Source: a virus. From it: a stretch of 64,000 nt of DNA. The stretch covers positions 1 through 64,000 of IMG/VR virus record IMGVR_UViG_3300032285_001268; one strand, given 5' to 3'. The translations under genes and the position numbers were made by a program. Positions 25,991 through 43,629 of the stretch are shown piece after piece (position 1 is the stretch's first letter; every line of letters begins with the position of its first letter). A model generated the notes under the pieces. The model was not told the DNA's origin. It saw only the letters and a program-made list of their open reading frames with translations, and searched no databases.

Positions 25991-26326
25991 TAGGCCCCGC
26001 TGTTAGTGTTATAGGATATAGTCATCTTTGGGTCGGGGAACTAATTGACTGTCTATGAGATGGGCAAATGACAGTCGATCTTCCCTTATATAGAATCTAG
26101 TAGGACCTGCTCGCCCTGCACTGACCCACTCTGCACACAGCCATAATTGTTCTTTAGTTGACTCATCCGCCCATGAGTCGTACGCTCTTATATACATAGG
26201 TTCGCTCCCGATATACACTAGTATATAGCTCAAACTGTGAGTATACTAGGCCCCGCTGTAGGCCTAGAGATAGGGCAGAGTTTAGAGGAGGTCCTAGCCT
26301 AGTGTGTGACTAGTAGGCCCCGCTGT
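25991..26326 (+). repeat. three copies of TAGGCCCCGCTGT
   Basis: Exact 13-mers at 25991, 26247 and 26314; related copies at 28646 and 34997. Confidence 0.8.
26009..26233 (-). CDS. hypothetical protein
   Basis: ORF track (TTG start). Confidence 0.4.
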   Translation of the reverse strand: MSYILVYIGSEPMYIRAYDSWADESTKEQLWLCAEWVSAGRAGPTRFYIREDRLSFAHLIDSQLVPRPKDDYIL

Positions 26327-26651
26327 AGGGGTGTTTAGAGTAACCATTTTAACTATGCCTCTCTGCCCCACCATTCAAAATTCTGCTGGCCAGCGTGATC
26401 CTAGGGTGGCATCCACTCTAAAGCCACAGTAGACCAGATCTGTCACACTTTATCACACAATTCAACACTTTTCTGCACTTTTTCAAGATCTTGGCCCCTA
26501 CAGTGACATCACTGTGCATGGTGGGGTGATCTATTTCACACTAGATCACACGGATTCACATTTAGATCTGGAATGACCGAGTAAATTCACTGTATATCTA
26601 CGGTAAGAATAGTGCTAACCACTAAGTACTATATACGACCGGGAGAACGCT

Positions 26652-26858
26652 ATGCCTAATGTTAGTCAAGCTCAGTTAAACTTTACCACTCATCACGCAC
26701 TGATAAGGGTTGATGAATCTGGTGGTATATTTGTATATAAGCACAATGGACACGGCTGTGATTGGGAGTTCTTCACTGATCAATATGCGGCCGCTGAGTA
26801 TATAATAGAAAATCTGCCACTAGTACACTATCGTATACAGTTTCCTGGGGAAGATTGA
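26652..26858 (+). CDS. hypothetical protein
   Basis: ORF track; GGGAGA RBS. Confidence 0.55.
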   Translation: MPNVSQAQLNFTTHHALIRVDESGGIFVYKHNGHGCDWEFFTDQYAAAEYIIENLPLVHYRIQFPGED

Positions 26859-26939
26859 GCTCTAGAATGATTTTAACATCACTCAGCTCAAAAGTCAAAC
26901 CAAAATTTCTCGTTAAGAATCGGTCTTATTTAGAATCTA

Positions 26940-27048
26940 GTTAGTTGGCACACACTAACTTAGAAATGGCAGGCACTCTCCACGTCCACCCCCGGATTGC
27001 CCGTTCGAACGCATGTCTTATCACTGGGGCAGTTTCGCTCTCTCAGCG
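26940..27048 (-). ncRNA. candidate small RNA, copy A (paralogue of 30170-30285)
   Basis: Own consensus promoter, no credible ORF, shares a 33-nt core with copy B, terminal hairpin AGTTAG/CTAACT; ends approximate. Confidence 0.5.
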
Positions 27049-27053
27049 TCCAT

Positions 27054-27147
27054 ATTATACTGCCAAAATTCATATGTGTCAATTCACTTTCAAAACGTCT
27101 GTGTTCTATCTGCCACAGTTGACACTTGTATAGATCCCTAGTATAAT
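27054..27147. promoter_or_regulatory. divergent pair of perfect sigma70 promoters
   Basis: Minus: TTGACA(27082-27077)-17-TATAAT(27059-27054); plus: TTGACA(27119)-17-TATAAT(27142). Confidence 0.85.
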
Positions 27148-27171
27148 AGTGGCTAGTAAGGAGGAGCGCAG

Positions 27172-27327
27172 ATGACTGAAGCAGACTATCAAAAACTAGA
27201 AGCCTTGGCTACCCTAGAGGATGCCATTGCCCGTATCTATAACATTGAAGGCGATCGTTGGCAGATGGCCTATGATACCCTGGAAGCTGTCCTGGGTAAT
27301 CTAGCCATAGAGCGGCCCCGTGGTTGA
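27172..27327 (+). CDS. small early hypothetical protein (51 aa)
   Basis: Found by hand: GGAGCG RBS, MTEADYQKLEAL..., stop TGA overlaps the next -35. Confidence 0.65.
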   Translation: MTEADYQKLEALATLEDAIARIYNIEGDRWQMAYDTLEAVLGNLAIERPRG

Positions 27328-27383
27328 CAGGATCGCTGATCCCGTGTATACTAGAGGCTAGTTAATTAATAAGGAGCGAACTT

Positions 27384-28091
27384 ATGTTTAAATTACTATC
27401 AACAGCAAACCCTAAGATCCAAAAGGGTACCAAGATGGGCTATCTCAGCTTCATCCTGCATCTTGCTCCAGCGGACTTGTCGGGTAAGGAGACTTGCCCC
27501 AAGCGGACAGCAGGTTGTACAGCGGCCTGCCTAAATACAGCAGGGCGTGGTGGCATGTTTAAACGGGGTGAGACGACCAATGCTATCCAGAAGGCACGTA
27601 TACGCAAGACTGAGTATTTCTTCCGCGATCGTGATGCTTTCATGCTGGATTTGGCCTACGACATACAAAAGGCCATTCGTTTTGCGGCCAAGCAGGGTTT
27701 GACGCCCGTGTTCCGCTTGAATGGTACTAGTGACTTATCCTGGGAGAAGTACGAAGTACCCGTGTTCTGCACTCGTAACATCTTTGAATTGTTCCCTACA
27801 GTACAGTTCTACGACTATACCAAAGTACTTGGACGCAAGGTTGCTGACATTCCTAACTATCACCTAACGTTCAGCAAGGCAGATGGCAACGATAGCGATG
27901 TGGCTGAAGCACTACTACAGGGCATGAGCGTGGTGGCAGTCTACGACCAAATCCCAGAGGGTGTACCCAGTGCAGACGAAACTGATCTGCGCTTCCTAGA
28001 CCCTAAGGGCATCATGTTAGGGCTTAAGGCCAAGGGCCGTGCTAAGAAGGACTACAGCGGATTCGTGATCCGTATCAAGGAGGCAGCATGA
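27384..28091 (+). CDS. GP88-like phage protein (Cys-rich, radical-SAM-like fold inferred)
   Basis: CPKRTAGCTAACL, RLNGTSDLSWE, FYDYTK, YHLTFS, DLRFLDP. Confidence 0.7.
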   Translation: MFKLLSTANPKIQKGTKMGYLSFILHLAPADLSGKETCPKRTAGCTAACLNTAGRGGMFKRGETTNAIQKARIRKTEYFFRDRDAFMLDLAYDIQKAIRFAAKQGLTPVFRLNGTSDLSWEKYEVPVFCTRNIFELFPTVQFYDYTKVLGRKVADIPNYHLTFSKADGNDSDVAEALLQGMSVVAVYDQIPEGVPSADETDLRFLDPKGIMLGLKAKGRAKKDYSGFVIRIKEAA

Positions 28092-28324
28092 CACGTACAG
28101 AGATAGACAATAGTCTACAGTGGGCGGGCACTGCCTCGCTCATGACCATGTATGTGATCATGAGCTTCTTTCCCGAACTACACCCCTGGAACCTAGTGGC
28201 TGGTTGCCTGGGCGGAGTACTGTATTTCGCTTGGACTCTACGTGTGGCAAATAAGCCACAGATGATAGTCAACGCCATGGGTATAACCATTACCCTACTA
28301 GGCTTATACAAGGCCTGGGGTTGA
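28088..28324 (+). CDS. small membrane protein
   Basis: Three hydrophobic helices. Confidence 0.6.
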   Translation: MTRTEIDNSLQWAGTASLMTMYVIMSFFPELHPWNLVAGCLGGVLYFAWTLRVANKPQMIVNAMGITITLLGLYKAWG

Positions 28325-28374
28325 CTAGAACCAGCTTTGAGCATACAATATACACTTACTAACAAGGAGCGGAT

Positions 28375-28638
28375 ATGAACATATCAACCATTGAGCAGTA
28401 TGTAGAGCAAAAAAATGAATGGCGTAAGATGTTTAACCAAAAAGTGTTAAGCCTGCTCAACGCCGCGGATCGTCAGACCATTGCTTTCAGCATTGACGCA
28501 GACCTTAGCCCAGAGAACCTTACCTGCGATGGCGAACTGCCTCGCTCACAGGTGCAGGCTCGTTACAAGATGCTGACCCGTGCGGCACAGGAGTTGGCCA
28601 GCATTGATCCCAATGTGGTATTCTACGAGTTCAATTAA
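28375..28638 (+). CDS. early hypothetical protein
   Basis: Promoter plus GGAGCG RBS; DLSPENLTCDGE. Confidence 0.7.
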   Translation: MNISTIEQYVEQKNEWRKMFNQKVLSLLNAADRQTIAFSIDADLSPENLTCDGELPRSQVQARYKMLTRAAQELASIDPNVVFYEFN

Positions 28639-28724
28639 CCAGGCGTGGCCCCGCTGTTAAGCAAGGTTGACGGCGGTGGCTTTTGGTTGTATACTATAGG
28701 CTAGACAGTTAGACAAAGGAGCGA

Positions 28725-28991
28725 ATGATGTACACCGTAGAACTTTATAAACGAGATGCCCGTAAGAAGTCGGGCGAGCGTCTGTATAGTAAGACAGACT
28801 ATGACACGGATAACCTCAGCATGTTAGAGCACACGGTCAAGCATACCTATCGTGCCAGCCAGGGATTCCGCTATGAGATCCACGAGACCTATGTTAAGAA
28901 GCATAACCTAATGGGTGGGGGCGAGTTCACAGAACGCTATGACACTCCCCACTACTGTTCACCAGCATCAGAATCTTATTGGAGCATGTAA
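28725..28991 (+). CDS. early hypothetical protein
   Basis: Promoter plus GGAGCGAAT RBS. Confidence 0.7.
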   Translation: MMYTVELYKRDARKKSGERLYSKTDYDTDNLSMLEHTVKHTYRASQGFRYEIHETYVKKHNLMGGGEFTERYDTPHYCSPASESYWSM

Positions 28992-28992
28992 T

Positions 28993-29280
28993 ATGGATAT
29001 CAAACAAGTAAACTCAGCTATCATGTTTGGTGATTGGACGGACGTAGAGCTCCGTAGCATGATCGATGCGGTCAAATGGAACCGTAGCCGATTGTCAGAC
29101 CGTACCAAGGCTGCGATCTGTGTAGGCGACAATGTAGAGTTCCTGTCCACTAAGACCGGGCGCTTGACCCGTGGCTTTGTAACCAAGAAGGCCATCAAGT
29201 ATGTCACAGTTGACACGGGCATGGGCTTGTGGAAGGTGCCAGCCAGCATGCTCACAGTGGTTGATAAAGAGCTGGCCTAG
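28993..29280 (+). CDS. early hypothetical protein (SH3-like C-terminus)
   Basis: ATG 28993 after GGAG; VGDNVEF...GFVTK...VTVD. Confidence 0.6.
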   Translation: MDIKQVNSAIMFGDWTDVELRSMIDAVKWNRSRLSDRTKAAICVGDNVEFLSTKTGRLTRGFVTKKAIKYVTVDTGMGLWKVPASMLTVVDKELA

Positions 29281-29338
29281 TGGTTGACAGGGCACCCAAA
29301 GCCCTGTATAATTATGGCTTACGTGATAGGAGCGAACT

Positions 29339-29536
29339 ATGGCAAGAGTGGACGGGCAAGTGGTCAACATCGGGGACTGGGTCAGCTTCAAGAGCGACTA
29401 TGAGCAGTGTGGCAAAATTGTCAAAATCAACGGCGATCGGTTGACCCTATTCAGAGACAATGAGGGCTTTGGGGGCGACTACATTGGGGGTGAAAACTAC
29501 ACCATTGAGTTGGCCAGCGATTGTTGGATTGAATAG
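29339..29536 (+). CDS. early hypothetical protein
   Basis: Promoter plus GGAGCGAAC RBS. Confidence 0.7.
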   Translation: MARVDGQVVNIGDWVSFKSDYEQCGKIVKINGDRLTLFRDNEGFGGDYIGGENYTIELASDCWIE

Positions 29537-29598
29537 GTTGACAGGTCCGGCCCAAACTAGTATAATATAGACATACAGTAAACGATTAGGAGCGAACT

Positions 29599-29943
29599 AT
29601 GAAATTACATATCACTACGCAATACATGGAGAACTACGGTGCCCACGATTGGGACGGTACTGGTGAGTGCCCTCAGTACTGGAAGTTCAAGGGTGGCGAG
29701 GACTACTTCTACCCATTGGGTTCAGCAGGCCGCTCAGCAGAGGCCATCGAGGAGTTGGTACACCACTTCCGTAAGGACATCGAGTGGGACGACATCGGTA
29801 GCCGTCAGTATATCGTAGGCTACGGTGTAGTGGCTGACGACTTCATGACTCCGTTTGAGAAGAGCCAGTTGGAGTACGAAGGTAGCATTACCTACCCTGC
29901 ACGGGTCCTTACAATCGAAGAAGATGTTTACTACGGAGCCTGA
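29599..29943 (+). CDS. early hypothetical protein
   Basis: Promoter plus GGAGCGAAC RBS. Confidence 0.7.
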   Translation: MKLHITTQYMENYGAHDWDGTGECPQYWKFKGGEDYFYPLGSAGRSAEAIEELVHHFRKDIEWDDIGSRQYIVGYGVVADDFMTPFEKSQLEYEGSITYPARVLTIEEDVYYGA

Positions 29944-29944
29944 T

Positions 29945-30169
29945 ATGATTACGATGGAAACTAGACAGAACTACGATCAGCGTCACGGCGGCCCATTTGA
30001 TCGTGGATCCGCTGACTCGTGGTATGGCCGTCCTAGAGACCCACACTTCTATACAGGCGACACTGGCACTAGCCAACGGGTAACTGAGCTTACACCCGCT
30101 GAGGTACAGGCCTACTTGGCGGGCTATCAGTGGAACGAGCAGTTCGGCGGTAAGAAGGATTACGATTAA
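29945..30169 (+). CDS. early hypothetical protein
   Basis: ATG 29945 after GGAG; HGGPFDRGSADSWYGR. Confidence 0.6.
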   Translation: MITMETRQNYDQRHGGPFDRGSADSWYGRPRDPHFYTGDTGTSQRVTELTPAEVQAYLAGYQWNEQFGGKKDYD

Positions 30170-30285
30170 GCTCTAGTCCCCAGCCACTGGGCCCTGCAAC
30201 TCGCCTGGGTTCCTCGCTGGGGCTTTTTCACGATCAGCCTATAGAACCGACAGGTACCCTCGACGTCCACCCCCCTCTGTTCGAC
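30170..30285 (-). ncRNA. candidate small RNA, copy B (paralogue of 26940-27048)
   Basis: Own minus-strand promoter at 30292-30320; 27/33 identity to copy A core; no RBS-led ORF; ends approximate. Confidence 0.5.
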
Positions 30286-30291
30286 TATCAT

Positions 30292-30320
30292 AGTATACGA
30301 TCTTGGGCCCAAAGTGTCAA
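30292..30320 (-). promoter_or_regulatory. antisense sigma70-type promoter inside the early array
   Basis: TTGACA(30320-30315)-17-TATACT(30297-30292). Confidence 0.8.
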
Positions 30321-30421
30321 CCCCAGGGGCAGAGGTGTGGCTAAAATACAACATCATTTTGGCTTGACATTTTGGCTAGTGTGCGCTATAATAAGTTTTT
30401 TACAGCAAACAGGAGCCTACA

Positions 30422-30586
30422 ATGCAATATTTTACTGTGTATCTGCGCTACGATAACGTAGAAGATTTGTGTGCTGTTAATGCTACTAGCGCAGAGGAAG
30501 CTATTGCTAAAGCGCAAGCATACTACAATGCACACGCAGAATTTTTAGACACTACTGTAACAGTTTATAAAGCAGTAGCAAGTTGA
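30422..30586 (+). CDS. small early hypothetical protein (54 aa)
   Basis: Found by hand: promoter, AGGAG, MQYFTVYLRYDNVEDL...; stop overlaps the next -35. Confidence 0.65.
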   Translation: MQYFTVYLRYDNVEDLCAVNATSAEEAIAKAQAYYNAHAEFLDTTVTVYKAVAS

Positions 30587-30637
30587 CATTTTGGACTAAG
30601 TGCAGTATAATTAACACTTACACACACAGGAGCACAC

Positions 30638-30862
30638 ATGTTTACAAATTGCATAGCCCGCGCTAAGTTAAACTACAACAAAAAATTAAAAACATATAAA
30701 CTGCTAGTAGCATTTATTAATAACGGAGACAGCATTACGCAACGCAATGCAAGTTTTATTAGCGGAGATTTGTGCGCAGAAACTATACAAAAAGACTTAG
30801 TGCGTGTGCTACAAACAGCACAGCAAACTCTGCGCACTAACAACATACAATTACTAGACTAA
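30638..30862 (+). CDS. early hypothetical protein
   Basis: Promoter plus AGGAG. Confidence 0.65.
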   Translation: MFTNCIARAKLNYNKKLKTYKLLVAFINNGDSITQRNASFISGDLCAETIQKDLVRVLQTAQQTLRTNNIQLLD

Positions 30863-30937
30863 ACTAGTAAACTAATACATAGCGCATTTGACTTTTTGGG
30901 CTAAGTGCGCTATAATTAGTTTTTTAAGGAGCGCAAA

Positions 30938-31186
30938 ATGGGACAGTACGCAAACACAGTTAACGCATACGCAGAAGACGAAGCACGAGCACGAGTTTAC
31001 AAAACGCAAAGACGTTTGCAAAGTTGGGGACAAACAAGTTACATGTTAAATGTAACTACTAACAAGTTCCGCAACGACATAGAAAAAAAAGCAGTTAAAT
31101 TAATTGCTAAGATGGAACTTGAAAAACTTGCGCAAATGCAAAAAGAGATTGCACAGTTAAAAGCAAAACATAGCATTACAGACTAA
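30938..31186 (+). CDS. early hypothetical protein
   Basis: Promoter plus AAGGAGCG. Confidence 0.65.
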   Translation: MGQYANTVNAYAEDEARARVYKTQRRLQSWGQTSYMLNVTTNKFRNDIEKKAVKLIAKMELEKLAQMQKEIAQLKAKHSITD

Positions 31187-31260
31187 AGGGTTAATACATA
31201 GCGCACTTGACATTTTGGACTAAGTGCGCTATAATTAGTTTTTTAGCAGTAAGGAGCAGT

Positions 31261-31530
31261 ATGTTGTTTAACACAAAGCAAATACGTGCATTAGCACGTA
31301 ATGTCAGTAACGTAAGCGCAAGTTATACGGACAGGACAAATAAAAAAGACAAAACAAGCAAAAGACGTACAGTAGTATTTTGTTTTAGCAATGCACAGGA
31401 TGCGGACACTTTAGCAAACTACTTGCGAGCTACTTGTGCAAACGAAGTAACACAGACTTGTGTTGCTAGAGATTACATAACACGCACATGGGGCGGAAGT
31501 TATGTACGTGTAAAAGCAGATTTAGCATAA
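31261..31530 (+). CDS. early hypothetical protein
   Basis: ATG 31261 after AAGGAG, downstream of promoter 31207. Confidence 0.65.
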   Translation: MLFNTKQIRALARNVSNVSASYTDRTNKKDKTSKRRTVVFCFSNAQDADTLANYLRATCANEVTQTCVARDYITRTWGGSYVRVKADLA

Positions 31531-31539
31531 GGAGTAAAC

Positions 31540-31701
31540 ATGCAGACATTTGTATACAAAAAAACACAAACACATTATTTGCACATAGATGCAGAAACGC
31601 AAGAGGAAGCAGACGCTATTGCAGACACAGTTGACATATATGCGGACAATGTATATGCAACGGAACTAGACGGTTGGGAATTAACAGATGGAGAAGTATA
31701 A
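31540..31701 (+). CDS. small acidic early protein (53 aa)
   Basis: Found by hand: AAGGAG, MQTFVYKKTQTHYLHIDAETQEEADAIAD... Confidence 0.6.
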   Translation: MQTFVYKKTQTHYLHIDAETQEEADAIADTVDIYADNVYATELDGWELTDGEV

Positions 31702-31877
31702 TGACAATACAATACGTAGATGCAAAGGCGGAGATTTTTAAATTACTTGCACAAGTGGAGACACTATTGCTAGAAGCAACTTGCGAAGGCGAGCAAATAG
31801 CGGGCACACGATGGGGTGACGAGATGTTTAACACACATGCGGAACTAGTGCAAATGGTTGACTACTACATAGACTAA
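31701..31877 (+). CDS. small early hypothetical protein
   Basis: TAATG coupling to the previous ORF. Confidence 0.6.
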   Translation: MTIQYVDAKAEIFKLLAQVETLLLEATCEGEQIAGTRWGDEMFNTHAELVQMVDYYID

Positions 31878-31886
31878 GGAGCGATT

Positions 31887-32054
31887 ATGACTAAGCTATA
31901 CCAAGTCACTTACACACTAACAGTGACAGAGGAAGTAGAAGCAGATAGCAAAGCAGACGCTGAGCAGGCGTTTAGCGAACTGTTTAGCGATGCTAACGAC
32001 TTGACCTGCTTGGGCAAGTATAAAGTTAAATGCTTGGGCAAAGCAGACGATTGA
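31887..32054 (+). CDS. small early hypothetical protein (55 aa)
   Basis: Found by hand: AAGGAGCGAT, MTKLYQVTYTLTVTEEVEADSKADAE...; stop overlaps the next -35. Confidence 0.65.
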   Translation: MTKLYQVTYTLTVTEEVEADSKADAEQAFSELFSDANDLTCLGKYKVKCLGKADD

Positions 32055-32101
32055 CATTTTGAGCAAAGTATAGTATAATTGTTTTTTAAGGAGCGAAACT
32101 T

Positions 32102-32458
32102 ATGCAAGCAACACAGTTTAAAGTTAGCAAAAAGCTAACACTAGTAGGCGTTACACAAGAAGACGACACTACTTGTACAGAGTACAAGTGCAAAGTAAAA
32201 GTGCAACTAGCAGGCGACAGTATTTGGGACTGTAATTTAAAAACAGTTACAATTAAAGAGATACACATTGCAGAGACAGACTGGGGCGATGGCGACACTA
32301 ACATACACATTGCAGTTGTACACACAGGCGGTGACGACAGCTGGCGCATATACACAGACAGCGGATTTGAGGCTGCTGTTAGCGACTTGCTAGGGACAGA
32401 CGTTAGTTTTACAGAGCAGGGCATGCAAGACGACGGCTACGCGAGTATGGAGTTGTAA
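32102..32458 (+). CDS. early hypothetical protein
   Basis: Promoter plus GGAGCGAA. Confidence 0.7.
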   Translation: MQATQFKVSKKLTLVGVTQEDDTTCTEYKCKVKVQLAGDSIWDCNLKTVTIKEIHIAETDWGDGDTNIHIAVVHTGGDDSWRIYTDSGFEAAVSDLLGTDVSFTEQGMQDDGYASMEL

Positions 32459-32526
32459 TACATAGCGCACTTGACTTTTTGGGTTAAGTGCGCTATAATT
32501 AACACTTACACACAGCAGGAGCGAAT

Positions 32527-32853
32527 ATGTTTAATGCAAAAGATTTAGGCAAGCAGTTTATTAAGTTAGTGCAAGCTAAAGACACAGACTTAGTAGAAGA
32601 TATTGTTGACTACGACGGCGAGGATACTTACTTGCTAGACTGTTATGTAGACGACGGCGAAGCTACAGACTATGCTAGCATAGACGAGTTAATTGCTAAA
32701 GGCATTGACGGAATTGAAACTGTAGATACTGTAACAGTAATGGGTAGCGCAAGCGGCGACACACGCTGTTACAGCAATACTGTTACAGCAATAGTACTAG
32801 ACGATGGTACTAAGTGGATGGATGCGGCATACTACGATTTAATTTTTGCTTAA
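32527..32853 (+). CDS. acidic early hypothetical protein
   Basis: Promoter plus GGAGCGAAT. Confidence 0.7.
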   Translation: MFNAKDLGKQFIKLVQAKDTDLVEDIVDYDGEDTYLLDCYVDDGEATDYASIDELIAKGIDGIETVDTVTVMGSASGDTRCYSNTVTAIVLDDGTKWMDAAYYDLIFA

Positions 32854-32862
32854 GGAGACTGT

Positions 32863-33051
32863 ATGAGCAACATGAGCAAAGCAATAGCATTGCATAAGGC
32901 AGTGCAGATGTTAGAGGAAGTAGACGCACTAGTGCAAAAAACACTAGGGGCTAGTGACGACTGTTACGATGTGCATTGTGCGCTGGAGGACTTGCAGGAT
33001 ACACTTGCAGGTTTTGCAGAGCAGTTAGAGGAAATGCAAATAACAGAGTAA
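32863..33051 (+). CDS. small acidic early protein
   Basis: AAGGAG RBS. Confidence 0.6.
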   Translation: MSNMSKAIALHKAVQMLEEVDALVQKTLGASDDCYDVHCALEDLQDTLAGFAEQLEEMQITE

Positions 33052-33132
33052 AGTGTAGGGCTTTTGGGCAAGCTGGTTGACAGTTTGCCCAAATCGCAGT
33101 ATACTATAGGCTAAGTTAACAAGGAGCGAACA

Positions 33133-33435
33133 ATGTTAAACATCAGCAAAATCGTAAAGGTCTACAACGGCAAAGTAGGTTGCATGTGCGGGTGTGGCGG
33201 CAAGTACAGCTACACAGCTGACGGGGCTACAAACTATGGCCCAGGCTATGACGTCTCCGACATGATTAACGAGCGTAGTGTACGCATTATTACAAAAAAG
33301 ATCCTCAGCAATCCTCTTGTCAAGTTTGAAGACAATTATGCTTATGTAGAGGACCGTGCCCGTAACAAGATGCAAATGGTTGTGTTCAAAGAGCCACAAG
33401 AGGTCTACAGCCCATTTGACACTTGTAACAGCTGA
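33133..33435 (+). CDS. early hypothetical protein
   Basis: Promoter plus GGAGCGAAC; GCMCGCGG. Confidence 0.7.
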   Translation: MLNISKIVKVYNGKVGCMCGCGGKYSYTADGATNYGPGYDVSDMINERSVRIITKKILSNPLVKFEDNYAYVEDRARNKMQMVVFKEPQEVYSPFDTCNS

Positions 33436-33473
33436 CAGTATAATTAAAACTTAAACACAGCAAGGAGCGAACC

Positions 33474-33719
33474 ATGCAGGTTAAAGAGCTAATTGAAGAA
33501 CTCAAGTACATGGACCCAGATGCCGAAGTACACTTCGCCTATAACTATGGCGATCACTGGCGCACTGAAGTGGCCCCAAAGGTCAGTCGGGTGCAGTCGG
33601 GTGCAGTGGAGTTTAGTGACTACCACCGCATGGACAAGGTAGCTGAAGAGGACGAGTGCTGGGACGAAGATACTGGCGATTGGAAAGAAGACGTCCGCAG
33701 GGTTGTGATTATTGATTAA
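33474..33719 (+). CDS. early hypothetical protein
   Basis: Promoter plus GGAGCGAAC; VKELIEELKYMDPDAEV start common in small phage proteins. Confidence 0.7.
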   Translation: MQVKELIEELKYMDPDAEVHFAYNYGDHWRTEVAPKVSRVQSGAVEFSDYHRMDKVAEEDECWDEDTGDWKEDVRRVVIID

Positions 33720-33785
33720 CCCGTAGAACTGAAGGGGATTTGACAAGAGTCTCCTTTGGTGCTATAATTGAGTTAAGTTAGAAAT

Positions 33786-33961
33786 TAGGGGTTACCTACA
33801 CCGTTAGGCCCTTGGAGAGGTGGAAGCGTTCCGACGGGGACCTAGTATCCAGGGCAAGAAGGCAGACCTTCGGGCGAAGCTGGCGGGTAGAGTAGGCTGT
33901 AATGACGAAGGCAACTGACGCCCTGGAGACGGTCCTAGGCAGTTAGACCGGAGTTCCCCTA
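33786..33961 (+). ncRNA. candidate structured non-coding RNA (about 176 nt)
   Basis: Dedicated promoter at 33740-33768, no RBS/ORF; closing stem TAGGGG/CCCCTA, nested GGACC/GGTCC and TCCAGGGC/GCCCTGGA, UUCG loop. Confidence 0.6.
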
Positions 33962-34023
33962 GTTGACAACACTATCATTTGGTTGTATAATACATTTTTC
34001 AACAGTACTTAAAGGAGCGAACG

Positions 34024-34515
34024 ATGGGTACACGAAGCATGATTGCTATTCAAAATCCACATAGCAAACAAATCCGCGCAGTCTACTGCCACTGGGATGG
34101 CTACTTGGAGCACAACGGCGCTATCTTGCAGAAGCACTATGCCGCAAGCCCTAAAGTCAACAACCTTATTGCCTTAGGCGACTTGTCTAGCCTGCGCCCT
34201 GAGATTGGTGTGCAACACGCATTCAGCTCGCTTGATGTACCCAAGCAAGAGCAAGAGGCTTACGATAAAGAGCACGGCAACAGTTGCACGTTCTACGGAC
34301 GTGACAGAGGCGAGAAGGACGTGGGCTTTAAGGTGTTTGACACGCTGGCTAAGGCTTGCGATCACTACACTTGGAGCGACTACTACTACTGCTTCAAGTA
34401 CACTAAGGCCAGCGACTACACAGTTGGCGAGTGGCACTACAAGAAGAACGGCGAGCGTTGGAAGAAGCTGGCTCCTGCTATTGCTAAACTTGATCCAAAG
34501 GAGTGTGCAGAATGA
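34024..34515 (+). CDS. early hypothetical protein
   Basis: Promoter plus GGAGCGAAC; MGTRSMIAI...VYCHWDGY. Confidence 0.7.
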   Translation: MGTRSMIAIQNPHSKQIRAVYCHWDGYLEHNGAILQKHYAASPKVNNLIALGDLSSLRPEIGVQHAFSSLDVPKQEQEAYDKEHGNSCTFYGRDRGEKDVGFKVFDTLAKACDHYTWSDYYYCFKYTKASDYTVGEWHYKKNGERWKKLAPAIAKLDPKECAE

Positions 34516-34727
34516 AAAAGGTAATTGTGCGCACAGAACTATATCAGGAACTTGAGGTTCCTGATAGCTGGGATAGGTATGATGTATACGATTTCCTAGC
34601 CGAGAACGAGAGCTTCCGTGAGGCTTTCCAAGGTGTAAGTAACCAAGATCAAACAGCCCGCATCCTAGACTTGGGTGTGGTTAATGAAACAGTAACAGAG
34701 ATGGGAGAAGAAGCATATGACGACTAA
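34512..34727 (+). CDS. small acidic protein
   Basis: ATG 34512 overlaps the previous stop. Confidence 0.55.
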   Translation: MKKVIVRTELYQELEVPDSWDRYDVYDFLAENESFREAFQGVSNQDQTARILDLGVVNETVTEMGEEAYDD

Positions 34728-34896
34728 GGCCGGATATTATCGCAAGAAGGCTATGAGTGACAGCAGGTTTGCCACACTCTATGAGGACCCTACCTACGAG
34801 TTGCCCGAGGACAAAGAGTTTGACGGCCCGGGATTTATTGATGTGACAGGCTGGACAGCAGAAGAAGTGCGCCGCCTGGGTCACGCAGACGAATAA
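34717..34896 (+). CDS. small hypothetical protein (59 aa)
   Basis: Found by hand: GGAG upstream, MTTKAGYYRKKAMSDSRFATLYEDP... Confidence 0.55.
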   Translation: MTTKAGYYRKKAMSDSRFATLYEDPTYELPEDKEFDGPGFIDVTGWTAEEVRRLGHADE

Positions 34897-34980
34897 CTAG
34901 TTCGCTCCTAGTTGCCCTTGAGGCCGGCACGACCCCCTCCGAGATGGGGGTCACTTTACAGCTAGACTGTGGCTTTTTTG
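34895..34980 (+). ncRNA. 3'-UTR hairpin element carrying anti-GGAGCGAA loop
   Basis: AACTAG-TTCGCTC-CTAGTT hairpin, then GACCCCC/GGGGGTC hairpin and T-tract. Confidence 0.55.
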
Positions 34981-35067
34981 CCACACTACCAGACCAGACC
35001 CCGCTGTAGCGCGGTTGACGCCCAAGCCAAAATCCTTTATAATTACTACATAATGAAGGAGCGGGCA

Positions 35068-35208
35068 ATGAAGATCACTATCAAAATACCAAACAAAACT
35101 AGGGCACACCTAGTTCTATTTTGCAAGGACACACCCTTCAAGCAGAAGCGTGTAGAGAGCAAGATTAAATATAAACGTCAACCTAAGCACAAGGGGAAAG
35201 AGCTATGA
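35068..35208 (+). CDS. small basic protein (46 aa)
   Basis: Promoter, AAGGAGCG, K/R-rich HLVLFCKDTPFKQKRVESKIKYKRQPKHK. Confidence 0.6.
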   Translation: MKITIKIPNKTRAHLVLFCKDTPFKQKRVESKIKYKRQPKHKGKEL

Positions 35209-35453
35209 AGGGCCTAATCACCAACCAATGGGACAGGGATAACCTTAACTTCCTGCTCAATACCAAAGACAAAGATCTAAAGGATTGGCATGCACAGGCA
35301 GACGCAGACGATCTAGCCTATGCTCAGGAACTCTTGGCCGCCTACAGCCTAGAGCTGAAACTTCAGGCTGAAGAGCTCCGTATTGAGTGCGAAATGGATC
35401 TAAAGGGCGACTTTAGCCAAGCATTAGCCGTGATTGACAAGATCAAGTTTTGA
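35205..35453 (+). CDS. hypothetical protein
   Basis: ATGA coupling. Confidence 0.6.
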   Translation: MKGLITNQWDRDNLNFLLNTKDKDLKDWHAQADADDLAYAQELLAAYSLELKLQAEELRIECEMDLKGDFSQALAVIDKIKF

Positions 35454-35490
35454 TACTATAATATACACTTAAACAACAAAGGAGCGAACT

Positions 35491-35637
35491 TTGAAGACAA
35501 TGACACAGAAACTAGAGCGTGATCGCTTAAATCGGTTAAAGCGTGAGCGTAAAGCCAATCGTCAGTTTGTGCTAGGTGCAGTGATGCTGGCAACTATCTT
35601 TGTAACCCCCTTGGCCGTTGCGGCCTTACTTTCTTAA
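35491..35637 (+). CDS. small membrane peptide (48 aa, TTG start)
   Basis: Found by hand: promoter, GGAGCGAAC, basic N-half and hydrophobic C-half. Confidence 0.55.
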   Translation: MKTMTQKLERDRLNRLKRERKANRQFVLGAVMLATIFVTPLAVAALLS

Positions 35638-35652
35638 TCATAGGAGCGAACT

Positions 35653-36240
35653 ATGCCTAATTGGTGCAACAACTATCTCGAATTAACTCACGATGATCCA
35701 GCAATGATCACTCGTGCCCGTAAGGCCTTTGCAGACGGACGACTGCTGGACGAATTTGTGCCAGTGCCAGAGAGCCTACACATCGTAGCAGGTCGAGTAG
35801 GTGACGACAACGATCCCAAGCAGATTGAGCTTGAGGCACAGGAAAAGGCCAACCTTGAGACACATGGCTACGCCACTTGGTATGACTACTGCGTCAACGA
35901 GTGGGGCACCAAGTGGGATGTAGGTGGTGATGACTACAGCCCTGCAGATGAAAAAGACCCTAATCATACTCGTATGAGTTTTGATAGTGCCTGGGCACCC
36001 CCTGTGCCTGCTATGGCCAAGTTCCAGGACTTGGGCTTCCGAGTCAAGTTGATCTACTGGGAGTCGGGCATGTGCTTCGCAGGCCTGTTTGACGAGAACG
36101 GTGATGACTTCTATGAACTTGGCGGTATGACTGCTGATCAAGTGGCTGAAGAGATCAACCCAGAGATCGACGAGTGCATGTGCATCAGCGAAAGTATGCG
36201 TGAATGGGAAGAAGAAAACGCTGAAGAGGAAGAAGAATAA
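35653..36240 (+). CDS. DUF1281/YubB-like ferredoxin-fold protein
   Basis: MPNWCNN, NEWGTKWD, FDSAWAPP, YWESGMCFAG. Confidence 0.7.
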   Translation: MPNWCNNYLELTHDDPAMITRARKAFADGRLLDEFVPVPESLHIVAGRVGDDNDPKQIELEAQEKANLETHGYATWYDYCVNEWGTKWDVGGDDYSPADEKDPNHTRMSFDSAWAPPVPAMAKFQDLGFRVKLIYWESGMCFAGLFDENGDDFYELGGMTADQVAEEINPEIDECMCISESMREWEEENAEEEEE

Positions 36241-36301
36241 CGGTTGACTGCCTTACCAAAAGGCAGTACAATTAGAATTAGTAAAACAACAAGGTACAGT
36301 A

Positions 36302-36448
36302 ATGAAAACCAACAAAGAAAAGAACTTAGAACATGATGCAAGGATGCAGGCCAAGGTTAGACCAAAGCCTGTAGAGTATAATTGGGAACCATTGGATGCA
36401 GTTGTAAAGCAATGGCGCCAAAGGAGTTATCAGAATGAGCAGGCTTGA
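36302..36448 (+). CDS. small hypothetical protein (48 aa)
   Basis: Found by hand downstream of promoter 36244. Confidence 0.45.
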   Translation: MKTNKEKNLEHDARMQAKVRPKPVEYNWEPLDAVVKQWRQRSYQNEQA

Positions 36449-36716
36449 ATTCTATGCTCGTCCGTTAGTTGCCTTTGATGCACACCTAAAAGAACATCGT
36501 CAGATCTACTATCAGTTTGTCAAAACGATGAGTTGGGGTGCTAGTCCATATAGGTTTATCTGCCCAGAAGATCACGGTGGCGATTTGGTTACCATGATCC
36601 AAAGACAGATCAACGACTACTACATCCACAAAGAATTTGGCGATCGACCACCGAAACCTGAGCCTTTGGTTCGCCAAAAAAGAAAGAAAACGGTTGACAA
36701 GGGCTCAAAAAAGTAA
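36435..36716 (+). CDS. hypothetical protein
   Basis: AAGGAG RBS; ORF track. Confidence 0.6.
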   Translation: MSRLEFYARPLVAFDAHLKEHRQIYYQFVKTMSWGASPYRFICPEDHGGDLVTMIQRQINDYYIHKEFGDRPPKPEPLVRQKRKKTVDKGSKK

Positions 36717-36778
36717 TATAATTTGAACATGCTAAGAAATTGGCATTAATTTTAACACACACAGAAAGAGGTAACAAA

Positions 36779-37144
36779 ATGGCTACAGATAAAACATTTA
36801 ATGTATTTGGTGTTTCTAAACTCAATGGCGAGTACAAAGTTCGTTTCGCGAATGACGTGATGCGTATCAAGGTATTGGCCAAACATGGTCATGAAGATAT
36901 CACTCTTGTTGACTTGGAGAAGTCAGTGAGCAAGTATGAAGGTATCAAGGCTATTGCCACTATGCCAGAGTTTGCCAATGCGGCTGCTCAGAGTGCGATC
37001 GCTGAATACTTGGAAGAAAAAGCACCTAAGGCTAAGGTCTCTAAGCCTGTGGCAAAAGCCGCGAAGACTCCGGTAGCGAAGACTACCAAAGCGCCTGCGA
37101 AAGCAGTTCAGAAAGTTACTGAGAACGAAGACGCTCCTTTCTAA
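36779..37144 (+). CDS. protein with histone-H1-like K/A/P-rich tail
   Basis: ATG 36779 after AGAGG; KAPKAKVSKPVAKAAKTPVAKTTKAPAK. Confidence 0.6.
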   Translation: MATDKTFNVFGVSKLNGEYKVRFANDVMRIKVLAKHGHEDITLVDLEKSVSKYEGIKAIATMPEFANAAAQSAIAEYLEEKAPKAKVSKPVAKAAKTPVAKTTKAPAKAVQKVTENEDAPF

Positions 37145-37147
37145 TCT

Positions 37148-37330
37148 ATGTTCATTCAGTACGAAGTCTGGGGCACACTCAACGGGCATGAAGAGCTCCT
37201 TGAGTGTGTAGCAACCCTAAAAGAAGCAGAAGAGTTGGCAGAAGAAGAAAGGTTCTTTGCTGATGAGATTTGGATCCTAGAGGACACGGACGGCGACCTG
37301 AAAGAAGTTAAGCGTTACCAGGGCCTATAG
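37148..37330 (+). CDS. small acidic protein; stop codon lies inside the tRNA
   Basis: ORF track. Confidence 0.55.
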   Translation: MFIQYEVWGTLNGHEELLECVATLKEAEELAEEERFFADEIWILEDTDGDLKEVKRYQGL

Positions 37331-37397
37331 CTCAGTTGGTTAGAGCAGAGGACTCATAATCCTTTGGTCCCTGGTTCGAGTCCAGGTGGGCCCACCA
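37321..37397 (+). tRNA. tRNA with CAT anticodon, probably tRNA-Ile2 (lysidine type)
   Basis: Acceptor GGGCCTA/TGGGCCC, D-arm TAGCTCAGTTGGTTAGAGC, anticodon arm GAGGA-CTCATAA-TCCTT, T-loop GGTTCGAGTCC, encoded CCA; C4-G69 and C5-G68 favour Ile2 over elongator Met. Confidence 0.9.
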
Positions 37398-37400
37398 CTC

Positions 37401-37430
37401 AAAGGTGTTGTAGAAATACAACACCTTTTC
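37401..37430 (+). terminator. hairpin after the tRNA
   Basis: AAAGGTGTTGTA-GAAA-TACAACACCTTT followed by TCTCTT. Confidence 0.6.
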
Positions 37431-37484
37431 TCTTGACATTTTGGCTAGGCCGTGCTATACTATAGGCTAAGTTAACAAGGAGCA

Positions 37485-38965
37485 GTGATGGGTTACAGAG
37501 TTCTTAACACCGTAGACACGATGCGTGACAATTATGGAGCACGTAAAGGCCTAGAAGGTCCTTACAATTTCAACGGCAGAGTGCTTTACTATGATCCTAA
37601 GGAAGGTAAGTATTACGATCCCAGCACAGACTTCTACGTGAGTCATGACGAATATTTTCGGTTGACAGGCCTCATCTAAACCTGTATAATTATACACATA
37701 CACAGCAAGGAGCGAACCATGCAAGTACACTTTATCGACACAGGAACACAGCAAGACTATGGCTTCAAAGAAGTAGAAGTCCACAGCTTCAAAATGGATC
37801 ATGCTGATGCACCCTACGCCATCGTTAGCAACCCATTCTTTCCAGGAGACAGCCTACGGGCCGAGTATAACTTTTACAACGGTAGCCTGCAATGGACGGT
37901 TGACGTCAGTTGATTTTGGCAGTATAATTAACATATTAACAAGGAGCGAACCATGTACGATATAGTCCAAAACCCAATTCCATTCAATGGATTCTTTTAC
38001 ACACCAGAATCATTTGCCCAACTGCAAGAGCGCATCGAACAGTTGCCAGCAAAGGAACGAGCACTTGTCTACACATTCGTAACACAGGCTATGAATCTGT
38101 GCTATCGAGAAGTAGAAGACAAGATCTTAAGCCGTGAAATCTTTGCACAATAAGGAGCAGTTATGACTACAGCATTTGAAGCAGTTATCTACGCACTCTA
38201 CTACACATGGCCCATGTGGGCTTTCCTGGCCTTGCTGAGTCTAGCCCTGTTCGTAGAAGAAGGCATCAAAGCCTACAGCCTGCGCAAGATGGTTGACAAC
38301 CCCACGCTTTGGTAATATAATTAAGACTTAAACAGCAACAAGGAGCGAACCATGAAGCTAAACGAAACCCGCACCGTCCCATATGGCACCATCCAGTATG
38401 TAGAGGACGAGGACTTTGGCAAGTGCTATCTAGTGCGCCACAACTTCATCAAACGCGAGATCTTCGCTGACACAGTCAAAGAAGCCAAGCAAGAGCTGGA
38501 AGAACTGCAGAAGGAAATGTCAGAGCTGAACTCTGCTATCTCTAAGCTTCAACGCTATGGCTACAAGGTCTACAAAGAAGTTGACAGCCTGTACGCTTGA
38601 GCATATAATTAACACTTACTTAAACAACATTGGAGCGAACAATGATTACAGCAGAACAAATCCAAGCAGGCAAGACTCTAGCAGAAGCGGCTGGTCGTGC
38701 AGAGTACGCCAAATGGGGCGGTGACCGTGGTGCTTGTGGCTTTGCTTGGGTAGAGGTCTACGTGGACCGTACTAACAGCAAACAGGCCAAAGAGCTGATC
38801 AAGGCAGGCTTCCGCAAGGACTACAAACCAAAATGCTTGAGCATGTGGGATCCAGCAGGCTTGCCCGTGCAGAACATCGACATCAAAGAAGCAGGCGCTT
38901 ATGCCTATGCCAACTACCTTACAGCACTGGGCTTGCGGGCCTATGCGGGTAGCAGACTAGACTAA
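37485..38965 (+). other. six small early ORFs, most with own promoter and GGAGC(GAA) RBS
   Basis: 37485-37679, 37719-37913, 37953-38153, 38163-38315 (found by hand, hydrophobic), 38352-38600, 38642-38965. Confidence 0.7.
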
Positions 38966-39038
38966 CCAAAACGTTAGGGCACATGCCCTAACTGTAGTAT
39001 AATTAATTTATTAACAGCGTAACAAAGGAGCGTAACAA

Positions 39039-39920
39039 ATGGTAGGTAAAGTCGTAACTAGTAAGATGCTAATGGCACTACAGCAAGATACCAAAAGCCT
39101 GGCCCAAGAGCCAGTTAAGAAAGACATCAGCACAGAGACTGATGAGCAGATCCTCAACCGTCTGCGTGATCGCTTTGAGATCTTAGATGACATGACCCGT
39201 GCAGTCAAGAAGGGCGATGTACGTGCTATGATCGTCACAGGCCCTCCAGGTGTGGGCAAGAGCTTTGGCGTTGAGAAAGTACTCAGCAAGCACGATGTGT
39301 TCGCTAACGTAGCAGACGACAAGAAGCTGAAGAAGTACGAAGTGGTCAAGGGTGCGATGAGCGCCATTGGCCTGTACTCTAAACTCTACGAATACTCAGA
39401 TAAGAAGTCAATCCTAGTATTCGACGACTGTGATAGCGTATTGCTTGATGACCTTAGCTTGAACATCTTGAAAGCCGCTCTGGATACCAGCAAGCGCCGT
39501 ATGATCCATTGGAACACAGACTCTAGGCTCTTGCGTTCAGAGGGTGTGCCCAACTCATTCGAGTTCAAGGGTGGTGCTATCTTTATTACCAACATCAAGT
39601 TCGATCACGTCAAGAGCAAGAAGCTACAGGATCACTTGGAAGCACTAGAGTCACGTTGCCACTACCTAGACTTGACTATCGATACAGAGCGTGAGAAGGT
39701 CCTGCGCATCAAGCAGGTAGTTACCGAGCACGGTATGTTAGATGACTATGAGCTGTCAGATGAAGCCAAGCTGGATGTGGTTGCGTTCGTAGATGCCAAC
39801 AAGCATCGCATGCGTGAGCTGAGCTTGCGTACAGTACTTAAGGTAGCAGACCTTAGAGCTAGCTTCCCGGACAAGTGGACTAGCGTAGCAGAGGTTACTT
39901 GTATGCGTGGCAGCCGCTAG
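39039..39920 (+). CDS. AAA+ family ATPase
   Basis: Walker A GPPGVGKS, Walker B ILVFDDCD, sensor IFITN, ALESRC arginine finger. Confidence 0.85.
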   Translation: MVGKVVTSKMLMALQQDTKSLAQEPVKKDISTETDEQILNRLRDRFEILDDMTRAVKKGDVRAMIVTGPPGVGKSFGVEKVLSKHDVFANVADDKKLKKYEVVKGAMSAIGLYSKLYEYSDKKSILVFDDCDSVLLDDLSLNILKAALDTSKRRMIHWNTDSRLLRSEGVPNSFEFKGGAIFITNIKFDHVKSKKLQDHLEALESRCHYLDLTIDTEREKVLRIKQVVTEHGMLDDYELSDEAKLDVVAFVDANKHRMRELSLRTVLKVADLRASFPDKWTSVAEVTCMRGSR

Positions 39921-40090
39921 GGCTCAGACCCTACATGCCCGTGTAGAGTATACAGAGCAAGCCGGCCCAGACTGGCAGACTCTGTGCAGTGAGAACAACT
40001 GACGTGATTCGCTCCCACTAGGTTGTTCGGTAGTGTGGTCCCTGACACCGTAATTCCGATTCGCTCCCGGTTGTGTCAGGGATTTTTTTT
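39918..40090 (+). ncRNA. candidate sRNA with two identical AUUCGCUCC loops, ending in an intrinsic terminator
   Basis: GTG-ATTCGCTCC-CAC (40004-40018) and CCG-ATTCGCTCC-CGG (40056-40070); outer stems GAACAAC/GTTGTTC and CCCTGACAC/GTGTCAGGG; T8 tract 40083-40090. Confidence 0.7.
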
Positions 40091-40283
40091 GGCTGGGGTA
40101 ACCGGGGTGGTGGGGCCAATAGAGGGGTGGGAGGCTTATATGTTAGCAACTACTAACTTAGCTAGCTAGCGCATGGGTACCGAGCTTTTTTCCACCATCT
40201 AAAAGTTTAAGTACTTCTTTATAATTTTTTACGCGGCAATTTTTTTAGGCTGCAGGACCCATTTCGGGCTATATACTATTACT

Positions 40284-43167: not shown

Positions 43168-43629
43168 TTAATTATCTTGCTTGACTGCGTCTCTGCTGTA
43201 GTATTGATAGTTTACTGATGTGGAATTTTCACGTAGGGTAACGGCACCGTTCTTATGATGGAAACGACGAGCCATTTCTGTCTGTGGACTGAGCGTGACA
43301 ATGGCCTTGATGTCCTTGTACTCTTGCTTGAGCCATTCAGCGGCCTGCTTGATTAACTTTTGACCTGCACCCGGACTATAACTCCAAATGGTGTAGAATA
43401 CTGCCACATCCTTGGTATGTCCCAGCTCGACTAGATCAGCTTCATCTTCTGGAATTTCTGTCAGCCACTGCATACAGGTAGCGGCCAAGATCTCTTCTCC
43501 TGCTTTTAGCAAGAGTATTTCGGCCGTTTCGTTAATACGTTGTTCCAACGGGATATGTGGTCGCACCGGATCATCTTTGATCACATGTGCTAGAGGATCA
43601 TTGAGGTCAGTGACGTGGTGCAGTTCCAT
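43168..43629 (-). CDS. GNAT-fold-like protein
   Basis: AVFYTIWSYSPGAGQKLIKQAAEWL...VTLSP...ARRFHHKNG. Confidence 0.55.
   Translation of the reverse strand: MELHHVTDLNDPLAHVIKDDPVRPHIPLEQRINETAEILLLKAGEEILAATCMQWLTEIPEDEADLVELGHTKDVAVFYTIWSYSPGAGQKLIKQAAEWLKQEYKDIKAIVTLSPQTEMARRFHHKNGAVTLRENSTSVNYQYYSRDAVKQDN

Follow-up and report, generated by a model that had tools for sequence, protein, structure and literature searches.

A class-specific extension of early ribosome-binding sites and its complementary hairpin loops in an uncultured phage lineage

Introduction

The c4 antisense RNA of phages P1 and P7 is made in the same transcription unit as its target and carries loops that are complementary to sequences covering the ribosome-binding site (RBS); it acts on one target operon (icd/ant) and serves immunity control in a temperate phage. 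In phage T4, the endoribonuclease RegB, together with ribosomal protein S1, cuts the sequence GG*AGRAYARAA mainly in the translation-initiation regions of early genes and spares the middle and late mRNAs (PMC3014915). The bacterial RNAs RsaE and LhrC pair with Shine-Dalgarno (SD) regions through loops that are C-rich or contain UCCC, and in LhrC the loop of the terminator is one of them (PMC2790875, PMC4132741). In the present study, we analyzed a stretch of 64,000 nucleotides (nt) from a virus (positions 1 to 64,000 of the IMG/VR record IMGVR_UViG_3300032285_001268; hereafter the window), in which most early genes are preceded by the extended SD sequence AGGAGCGAA. Its octamer GGAGCGAA, referred to below as the tag, has an exact complement, UUCGCUCC, in the loops of three sense-strand hairpins. 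Because the tag and the loops are each conserved across the lineage and are exact complements, the best-supported reading of these sequences is that the CGAA extension of the SD sequence serves as the address of a trans-acting RNA.

The window is part of a single record of 185,262 bp, the completeness of which is approximately 50% according to CheckV. The terminase is approximately 53% identical to its counterpart in the Pseudomonas jumbo phage PA5oct, which is the nearest cultured phage, and no close cultured relative of the lineage was found.

Results

Occurrence and position of the tag

The tag occurs 15 times on the + strand of the window and four times on the - strand (at 26201, 34901, 40008, and 40060), whereas 0.90 ± 0.95 copies are expected on both strands together; this total of 19 is an approximately 20-fold excess that was reached in none of 100 shuffled sequences. 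The whole record contains 17 copies on the + strand and 7 on the - strand. A preliminary description of the sequence had listed 15 exact sites on the + strand and six GGAGCG variants; every site was found at its position (Table 1), and each of the variants lies 1 to 5 nt ahead of an ATG. The gap between the exact tag and the start codon is 1 to 4 nt, and one of these starts is a TTG codon. Judging from its core pairing with the canonical anti-SD sequence and its distance of 5 to 8 nt to the start, the (A)AGGAG portion is the SD sequence.

Fourteen of the 15 exact tags lie in one repeated cassette, each with a promoter of its own. The cassette consists of TTGACA, 17 nt, TATAAT (or TATACT), a leader, AGGAGCGAA, 1 to 4 nt, and the start codon. 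The leader is composed of 54% A and 6% G, and only 4 to 16 nt of predicted 5′ untranslated region (UTR) precede the tag. Nearly all of the small early genes possess their own sigma-70-type promoter, and the early block thus looks like a region that is transcribed by the host polymerase. Its genes are small ORFans, together with a GP88-family protein and a final NrdC.10-like AAA ATPase, and most of the early proteins belong to no known family. Hfq-type (ARN)n repeats are in modest excess in the leaders (20%, compared with 12% in shuffled sequences), which is not relied on here.

The tag is a property of one gene class. Of 36 genes in the early block, 24 have an SD sequence that continues as GGAGC, compared with 12 of 196 other genes, as counted with rough gene calls and with an early class assigned from promoters; this agrees with the restriction to one class that was stated in the preliminary description. 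The motif ATAAATA, which was compared with the T4 late promoter TATAAATA, is enriched 25-fold ahead of genes; in the whole record, 22 non-early genes, including large structural ones, have it no more than 60 nt upstream, and this phage probably uses a late-promoter system of the T4 type. None of these 22 genes carries the tag; their SD sequences are of the AAGGAGA or AGGA type and have no C at position +4, i.e., directly after GGAG. The claim that no tag precedes late or replication genes therefore held almost completely and fails at a single tagged start in the structural block. This tag (aatcaGGAGCGAAtATG, position 112730 of the record, - strand) belongs to the gene at 111535-112728, is the only copy at a start codon beyond 26-40 kb, and may be a chance occurrence or a genuine exception.

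Conservation of the tag among relatives

Relatives were gathered independently of the motif, by homology to the 293-amino-acid (aa) ATPase that neighbors the hairpins. This search yielded 182 relatives, from which 80 loci with 74-92% identity were kept; 78 of them (L117-L194; 1.07 Mb) were analyzed, and the results below refer to this set unless stated otherwise. It contains 345 copies of the tag. After GGAG behind promoter-like sites, CGAA was found 315 times, followed by CGAC (64), CACA (46), CAGA (26), and CGAT (26). The 567 unique cassettes have A(-1) in 92%, C(+4) in 93%, G(+5) in 74%, A(+6) in 70%, and A(+7) in 69% of cases, and the consensus after GGAG is CGAA(A/C). GGAG lies at a narrowly limited distance from the start codon (5 to 8 nt in 540 of the 567 cassettes), whereas the spacing between the -10 hexamer and the tag is loose (10 to 25 nt), which argues that the tag is selected together with the start of translation and not with the promoter. 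The spacer of the promoter and the leader vary freely; AGGAGC(GAA) is as tightly kept as the two hexamers.

The pattern of promoter plus AGGAGCGAA matches more than 116 IMG/VR stretches, many of which have 2 to 5 copies with a similar leader. Near-complete relatives are 345-383 kb in length and contain 2 or 3 of the complementary loops each, and their tagged RBSs cluster within approximately 12 kb upstream on the same strand. A system that is kept across well over 100 environmental phage contigs appears to be a successful strategy and not a one-off. PA5oct, on the other hand, contains one GGAGCGAA in 287 kb and shows no synteny with the early block; the system therefore dates to the present lineage, and PA5oct gives no test of covariation.

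Complementary hairpin loops in the early region

The sense-strand octamer TTCGCTCC occurs three times in the whole 185-kb record, and all three copies lie in hairpin loops of the early region. Two of them are 52 nt apart in a stretch that is free of open reading frames (ORFs) past the stop codon of the ATPase gene, where they form the loops of twin hairpins (39993-40081; Table 1); the last early operon, which opens with the gene at 38642, ends in these hairpins. Hairpin 2 is followed by a run of eight T residues (40083-40090) and thus doubles as the intrinsic terminator for the whole early block. In both the minimum-free-energy and the centroid folds, the loop AUUCGCUCC stays unpaired. An Rfam E-value scan of 25-42 kb returned only a tRNA-Met.

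Among the relatives, sense-strand TTCGCTCC was found 160 times compared with 16 expected. When the octamer within the context CCGA-N8-CGG was left free, it was TTCGCTCC in 87 cases, ATCGCTCC in 4, and any other variant in no more than 2; nothing comparable was found in this context on the opposite strand. The stems of both hairpins covary around a loop, GAUUCGCUCCC, that does not change, and this invariant loop, A-UUCGCUC-C, is the exact complement of GGAGCGAA. There are 49 unique twin-hairpin loci directly behind the ATPase gene, and an alignment of 40 of them shows GATTCGCTCCC unchanged in either loop of all 40, with variation in nearly all other columns. A run of at least six T residues lies within 80 nt downstream of 57% of the 124 unique loops, as compared with 4% of random positions, and 10% of the loops are inside long ORFs, as compared with 56% of random positions. 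As a rule, the loops are intergenic and close to terminators.

The covariance model of hairpin 2 gave 86 matches from 79 sources at E < 1e-3. All nine pairs of its outer stem have changed on both sides, and the covariation is 0.409 compared with 0.117 in shuffled alignments (0 of 500 reached the observed value) and at most 0.14 in slid controls, figures that are to be read with the bias of a model-fitted alignment, which favors the structure. For this reason, hairpin 1 was tested on an ungapped, loop-anchored alignment with a structure given by hand; the covariation is 0.52, compared with 0.218 in shuffled alignments (0 of 500) and at most 0.19 in slid controls. The inner pair of hairpin 1 alternates between C-G (30 sequences) and U-A (10 sequences). 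RNAalifold, applied to loop-anchored MAFFT alignments in which the linkers differ in length, did not recover the outer stems.

In most of these relatives, a small third conserved hairpin (consensus AGCAGCC-CTAAGA-GCTGT) lies ahead of hairpin 1, past the stop codon of the ATPase gene, and a diverged version of it lies at approximately 39961-39976 in the window. A G-rich tract with GGTGG and GGGG runs directly follows the twin-hairpin terminator (40092-40140, + strand), and similar tracts are seen in many relatives. Further relatives (L003, L010, L014, L024, L037, L045, and others) have the same CCGAUUCGCUCCCGG loop in other conserved settings: one follows a gene ending in ..GITL*, in a stem of the form UUUCAAA...UUUGA ahead of a separate terminator, and another comes after '..GCCGAAUAA'. 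These further settings were not found in the present record, which is approximately 50% complete. In a search of 185,579 bacterial and archaeal species genomes, the twin-loop pattern had a single match, in a 9.5-kb contig of an Ignavibacteria metagenome-assembled genome (L196; VGVV01000021.1). This is probably a mis-binned phage contig, at best a weak hint of the host, and it is not used as host evidence.

Predicted pairing between loops and ribosome-binding sites

The loop matches 15 (+1) RBSs of the window exactly over 8 nt and the variant sites over 5 to 7 nt. The 8-bp duplex between loop and RBS is predicted to have an energy of -12.4 kcal/mol (-14.3 kcal/mol with flanks), compared with -7.6 kcal/mol for the same RBS with the canonical anti-SD tail, which was used in place of the host's own sequence. 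On this canonical tail, (A)AGGAG pairs with CCUCCUU, whereas CGAA faces CAC/U in mismatches, in agreement with the earlier statement that only the SD core pairs with 16S rRNA. The predicted cost of opening is 0.04-0.08 kcal/mol for the twin loops and 1.3-3.8 kcal/mol for the targets. The mean energy of pairing with the loop is -10.4 kcal/mol for early translation-initiation regions and -5.6 kcal/mol for other genes (Mann-Whitney p = 1.6e-9). The YUNR U-turn motif is a feature of fast-pairing antisense loops, and the start of the present loop, UUCG, presumably fits this motif. The putative pseudo-anti-SD sequence of the twin loops, GAUUCGCUCC, resembles the 16S sequence GAUCACCUCC at 7 of 10 positions.

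Other features of the early block

The coordinates of the features are collected in Table 1. The region at 26000-27150 is a divergent control region, with back-to-back perfect promoters at 27082 (- strand) and 27119 (+ strand); the - strand gene at 26009-26197 has its tag, GGAGCGAA, behind an element of the TATACT type. A tRNA-Met gene with the anticodon CAT lies inside the early block (37321-37397, + strand). It is approximately 92% identical to tRNA-Met genes of T4-like phages of Acinetobacter and, to the same extent, to a stretch of Pseudomonas phage phi3 that is annotated as integrase or site-specific recombinase. At 33740-33965 (+ strand), approximately 190 nt of G-rich sequence with neither an ORF nor a tag lie behind a promoter that matches the consensus 12/12 and has an extended -10 TG. 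This stretch may encode a non-coding RNA, and its predicted fold is unremarkable (z = -1.4).

Table 1. Features of the early region and its surroundings, in window coordinates (promoters and start codons are given by position).
Feature	Position	Strand	Description
Near-consensus sigma-70-type promoters (~24)	27119..38609	+	15 with 12/12 matches, nine with 11/12; almost all ahead of a small early gene
GGAGCGAA tag	26201..26208	-	RBS of divergent small gene 26009-26197 (-), edge of early block
GGAGCGAA tag	27373..27380	+	ATG 27384, 235-aa GP88-family protein; promoter 27324
GGAGCGAA tag	28718..28725	+	start 28725/28728; promoter 28667
GGAGCGAA tag	29329..29336	+	ATG 29339; promoter 29284
GGAGCGAA tag	29589..29596	+	ATG 29599; promoter 29538
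GGAGCGAA tag	32090..32097	+	ATG 32102; promoter 32051
GGAGCGAA tag	32518..32525	+	ATG 32527; promoter 32471
GGAGCGAA tag	33123..33130	+	ATG 33133; promoter 33077
GGAGCGAA tag	33464..33471	+	ATG 33474; promoter 33416
GGAGCGAA tag	34014..34021	+	ATG 34024; promoter 33963
GGAGCGAA tag	35481..35488	+	TTG start 35491; promoter 35434
GGAGCGAA tag	35643..35650	+	ATG 35653; sole exact copy with no promoter of its own close upstream
GGAGCGAA tag	37709..37716	+	ATG 37719; promoter 37662
GGAGCGAA tag	37943..37950	+	ATG 37953; promoter 37900
GGAGCGAA tag	38342..38349	+	ATG 38352; promoter 38293
GGAGCGAA tag	38632..38639	+	ATG 38642; promoter 38581
GGAGCG variants at RBS position	27163..39034	+	27163 GCA, 28366 GGA, 30928 GCA, 31878 GAT, 35058 GGG, 39027 GTA
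Further AGGAGC variants		+	downstream of promoters at 30364, 30583, 31207, 37433
Third anti-RBS hairpin	34895..34913	+	AACUAG[UUCGCUC]CUAGUU; begins within stop codon of ORF 34717-34896
Last early gene	39039..39920	+	293-aa NrdC.10-like AAA-type ATPase (phrog_1250)
Anti-RBS hairpin 1	39993..40028	+	8-bp outer stem, inner GUG/CAC, loop AUUCGCUCC 40007-40015
Anti-RBS hairpin 2	40040..40090	+	9-bp outer stem, inner CCG/CGG, loop AUUCGCUCC 40059-40067
Genes preceded by ATAAATA (examples)	1208-2368, 43168-43629, 47163-48047	-	

Discussion

The preliminary description had proposed that CGAA is a regulon-wide address for a trans-acting RNA or protein. Its RNA version is supported in silico by the complementary loops with their covarying stems, by the anchoring of the tag to the start codon, and by its absence from the late class. 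The most likely mechanism, which we favor with moderate confidence from the sequence comparisons, is a class-specific occlusion of the early RBSs by the anti-RBS loops. AGGAGCGAA would have a dual function, in which (A)AGGAG acts as an ordinary SD sequence and the CGAA extension turns GGAG into an 8-nt target that is complementary to the UUCGCUCC loops with which early transcription units end. Since the promoters of the early block nearly all point one way and few internal terminators are seen, transcripts would read through and end at the twin hairpin, and a stable 3′ fragment could accumulate in the course of early transcription. The stable 3′-end hairpins, either released or within 3′ UTRs, would then pair with the early mRNAs loop to RBS. 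This pairing would cover the SD sequence and lower the translation of the early class; repression is favored over protection or activation because pairing over the SD sequence should block binding of the 30S subunit. The middle and late mRNAs, which have no CGAA address, would be untouched.

Several observations weigh against occlusion by the loops. The region 39921-39990 contains no promoter, and none that is dedicated to the hairpin RNA was found; the RNA would consequently have to work from within a 3′ UTR or be a 3′-derived fragment that is made together with its targets. With 2 or 3 loops per genome and 10 to 30 tagged mRNAs, it would require high stability or accumulation. The loop of the third hairpin is predicted to be less accessible than the twin loops (opening cost of 4.2 kcal/mol). 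C(+4) alone is near invariant; approximately half of the cassettes are variants such as CGAC, CACA, and CAGA, which would pair with the loop over only 5 to 7 nt. A search for loop and RBS variants that change together found no compensatory pair in this clade, which is too uniform; GGAGCGAT RBSs were not seen alongside the rare loop variant ATCGCTCC (6 cases), which is uninformative.

Alternatively, the tag may be an efficient initiation region that has spread with mobile cassettes in the manner of the promoter/stem-loop (PeSL) elements of T4-type phages. CGAA would then be kept by recombination or gene conversion, or for its efficiency in initiation, and the complementarity of the loops, which might bind a protein, for example, would be incidental. 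That 14 of the 15 tags belong to a recurring cassette and each have a promoter fits this explanation, as does the wealth of small ORFans in the early block, which resembles the hyperplastic regions of PeSLs (PMC2839356, PMC4122927), and the variation of GAA in approximately half of the cassettes of relatives points to a moderate constraint on these positions. A block that is inherited as a whole, however, would not leave the spacer and leader free while AGGAGC(GAA) is held like the hexamers, which argues for selection on the tag itself. Furthermore, the chance that an invariant 11-nt loop contains an exact 8-nt complement of the tag is approximately 6e-5, or 1/256 given a CUCC loop. We therefore regard this alternative as unlikely.

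An address read by a protein is quite improbable in our view. GGAGCGAA would here be the site at which a phage protein acts on early mRNAs, as an endoribonuclease in the manner of RegB or as a translational repressor in the manner of RegA but without homology to the T4 proteins, and the complementary hairpins would be unrelated or would be antagonists that mask the site. The action of RegB and S1 on early translation-initiation regions in T4 provides a precedent (PMC3014915), and a record that is approximately 50% complete and rich in early proteins without a known family leaves room for such a factor. However, neither PF10715 (RegB) nor PF01818 (RegA) matched the 185-kb record at E ≤ 1, at this completeness of approximately 50%. 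Moreover, the tag does not fit the RAYARAA that follows GGAG in T4, and a protein reader leaves the invariant complementary loops unexplained.

As a duplex, the RBS motif and the loop motif are the same 8-bp site in opposite orientations, and one double-stranded DNA-binding protein could thus read it at both the RBSs and the hairpin tips and exert transcriptional control. This is very improbable, since each motif keeps strictly to one orientation with respect to transcription, the position of the RBS copy follows the start codon and not the promoter, the flanks differ consistently (A(-1) at the RBSs versus an invariant G in the loop complement), and the stems flanking the loops covary in the manner of RNA helices. 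A longer SD interaction, in which the whole tag pairs with the 3′ end of the host 16S rRNA or with some other part of the rRNA, would be conceivable, but it is extremely improbable because the late-class genes use ordinary AAGGAGA or AGGA sequences without C(+4), so that the tag is dispensable for the host ribosome, and because the anti-SD sequence CCUCC and its flanks are, to our knowledge, almost universal in bacteria.

Occlusion by the loops could be part of a larger scheme, which we put forward tentatively and consider somewhat doubtful: a private channel in an abundant lineage of uncultured jumbo phages of approximately 350 kb, in which the twin-loop RNA accumulates at the end of the early block, titrates the RBSs, and shuts off the whole class, thereby functioning as an all-RNA timer in the role that the protein RegB has in T4. 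If the pairing is real, it would be the first phage example known to us of a single short RNA loop that reaches all genes of one temporal class by way of a private SD extension. It would then explain how a phage with approximately 30 very strong early promoters of the host type frees ribosomes for its later genes without a RegB-like enzyme, and the tag and loop would provide a compact natural pair of orthogonal RBS and anti-RBS for synthetic biology. A literature search for the octamers returned only primer matches.

As in T4, GGAG is extended in the 3′ direction into an address that is enriched in early genes and spares late ones, and both arrangements allow a post-transcriptional shut-off of the early class. 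They differ in the reader, which in T4 is a protein nuclease with ribosomal protein S1 and here is a candidate RNA loop, and in the extension, which is RAYARAA in T4 and CGAA in the present phage, with C after GGAG in 93% of the cassettes. Similar to RsaE and RNAIII of Staphylococcus aureus and LhrC of Listeria, the candidate RNA repeats a C-rich loop motif and would pair with the SD regions of several mRNAs, which in the bacterial examples blocks initiation. These are bacterial small RNAs with their own promoters, and their motif of 4 to 5 nt matches generic G-rich SD sequences, whereas the phage RNA would derive from the end of an operon and its 8-nt loop matches a private, class-wide SD extension; no relationship in sequence or in Rfam was found between them. 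The c4 RNA of P1 and P7, in contrast to the present system in a virulent-type jumbo phage, does not read a regulon-wide tag. With the PeSLs of T4-type phages (PMC2839356, PMC4122927), the locus shares short repeated cassettes that carry an early sigma-70 promoter and separate small, variable early genes, but PeSLs are defined by a terminator stem-loop and a promoter, with a role in recombination, and not by an RBS extension or a complementary trans element. The system described here thus appears to be neither a RegB system, nor a C-rich-loop small RNA, nor a PeSL; it resembles the first in its logic, the second in its mechanism, and the third in its layout.

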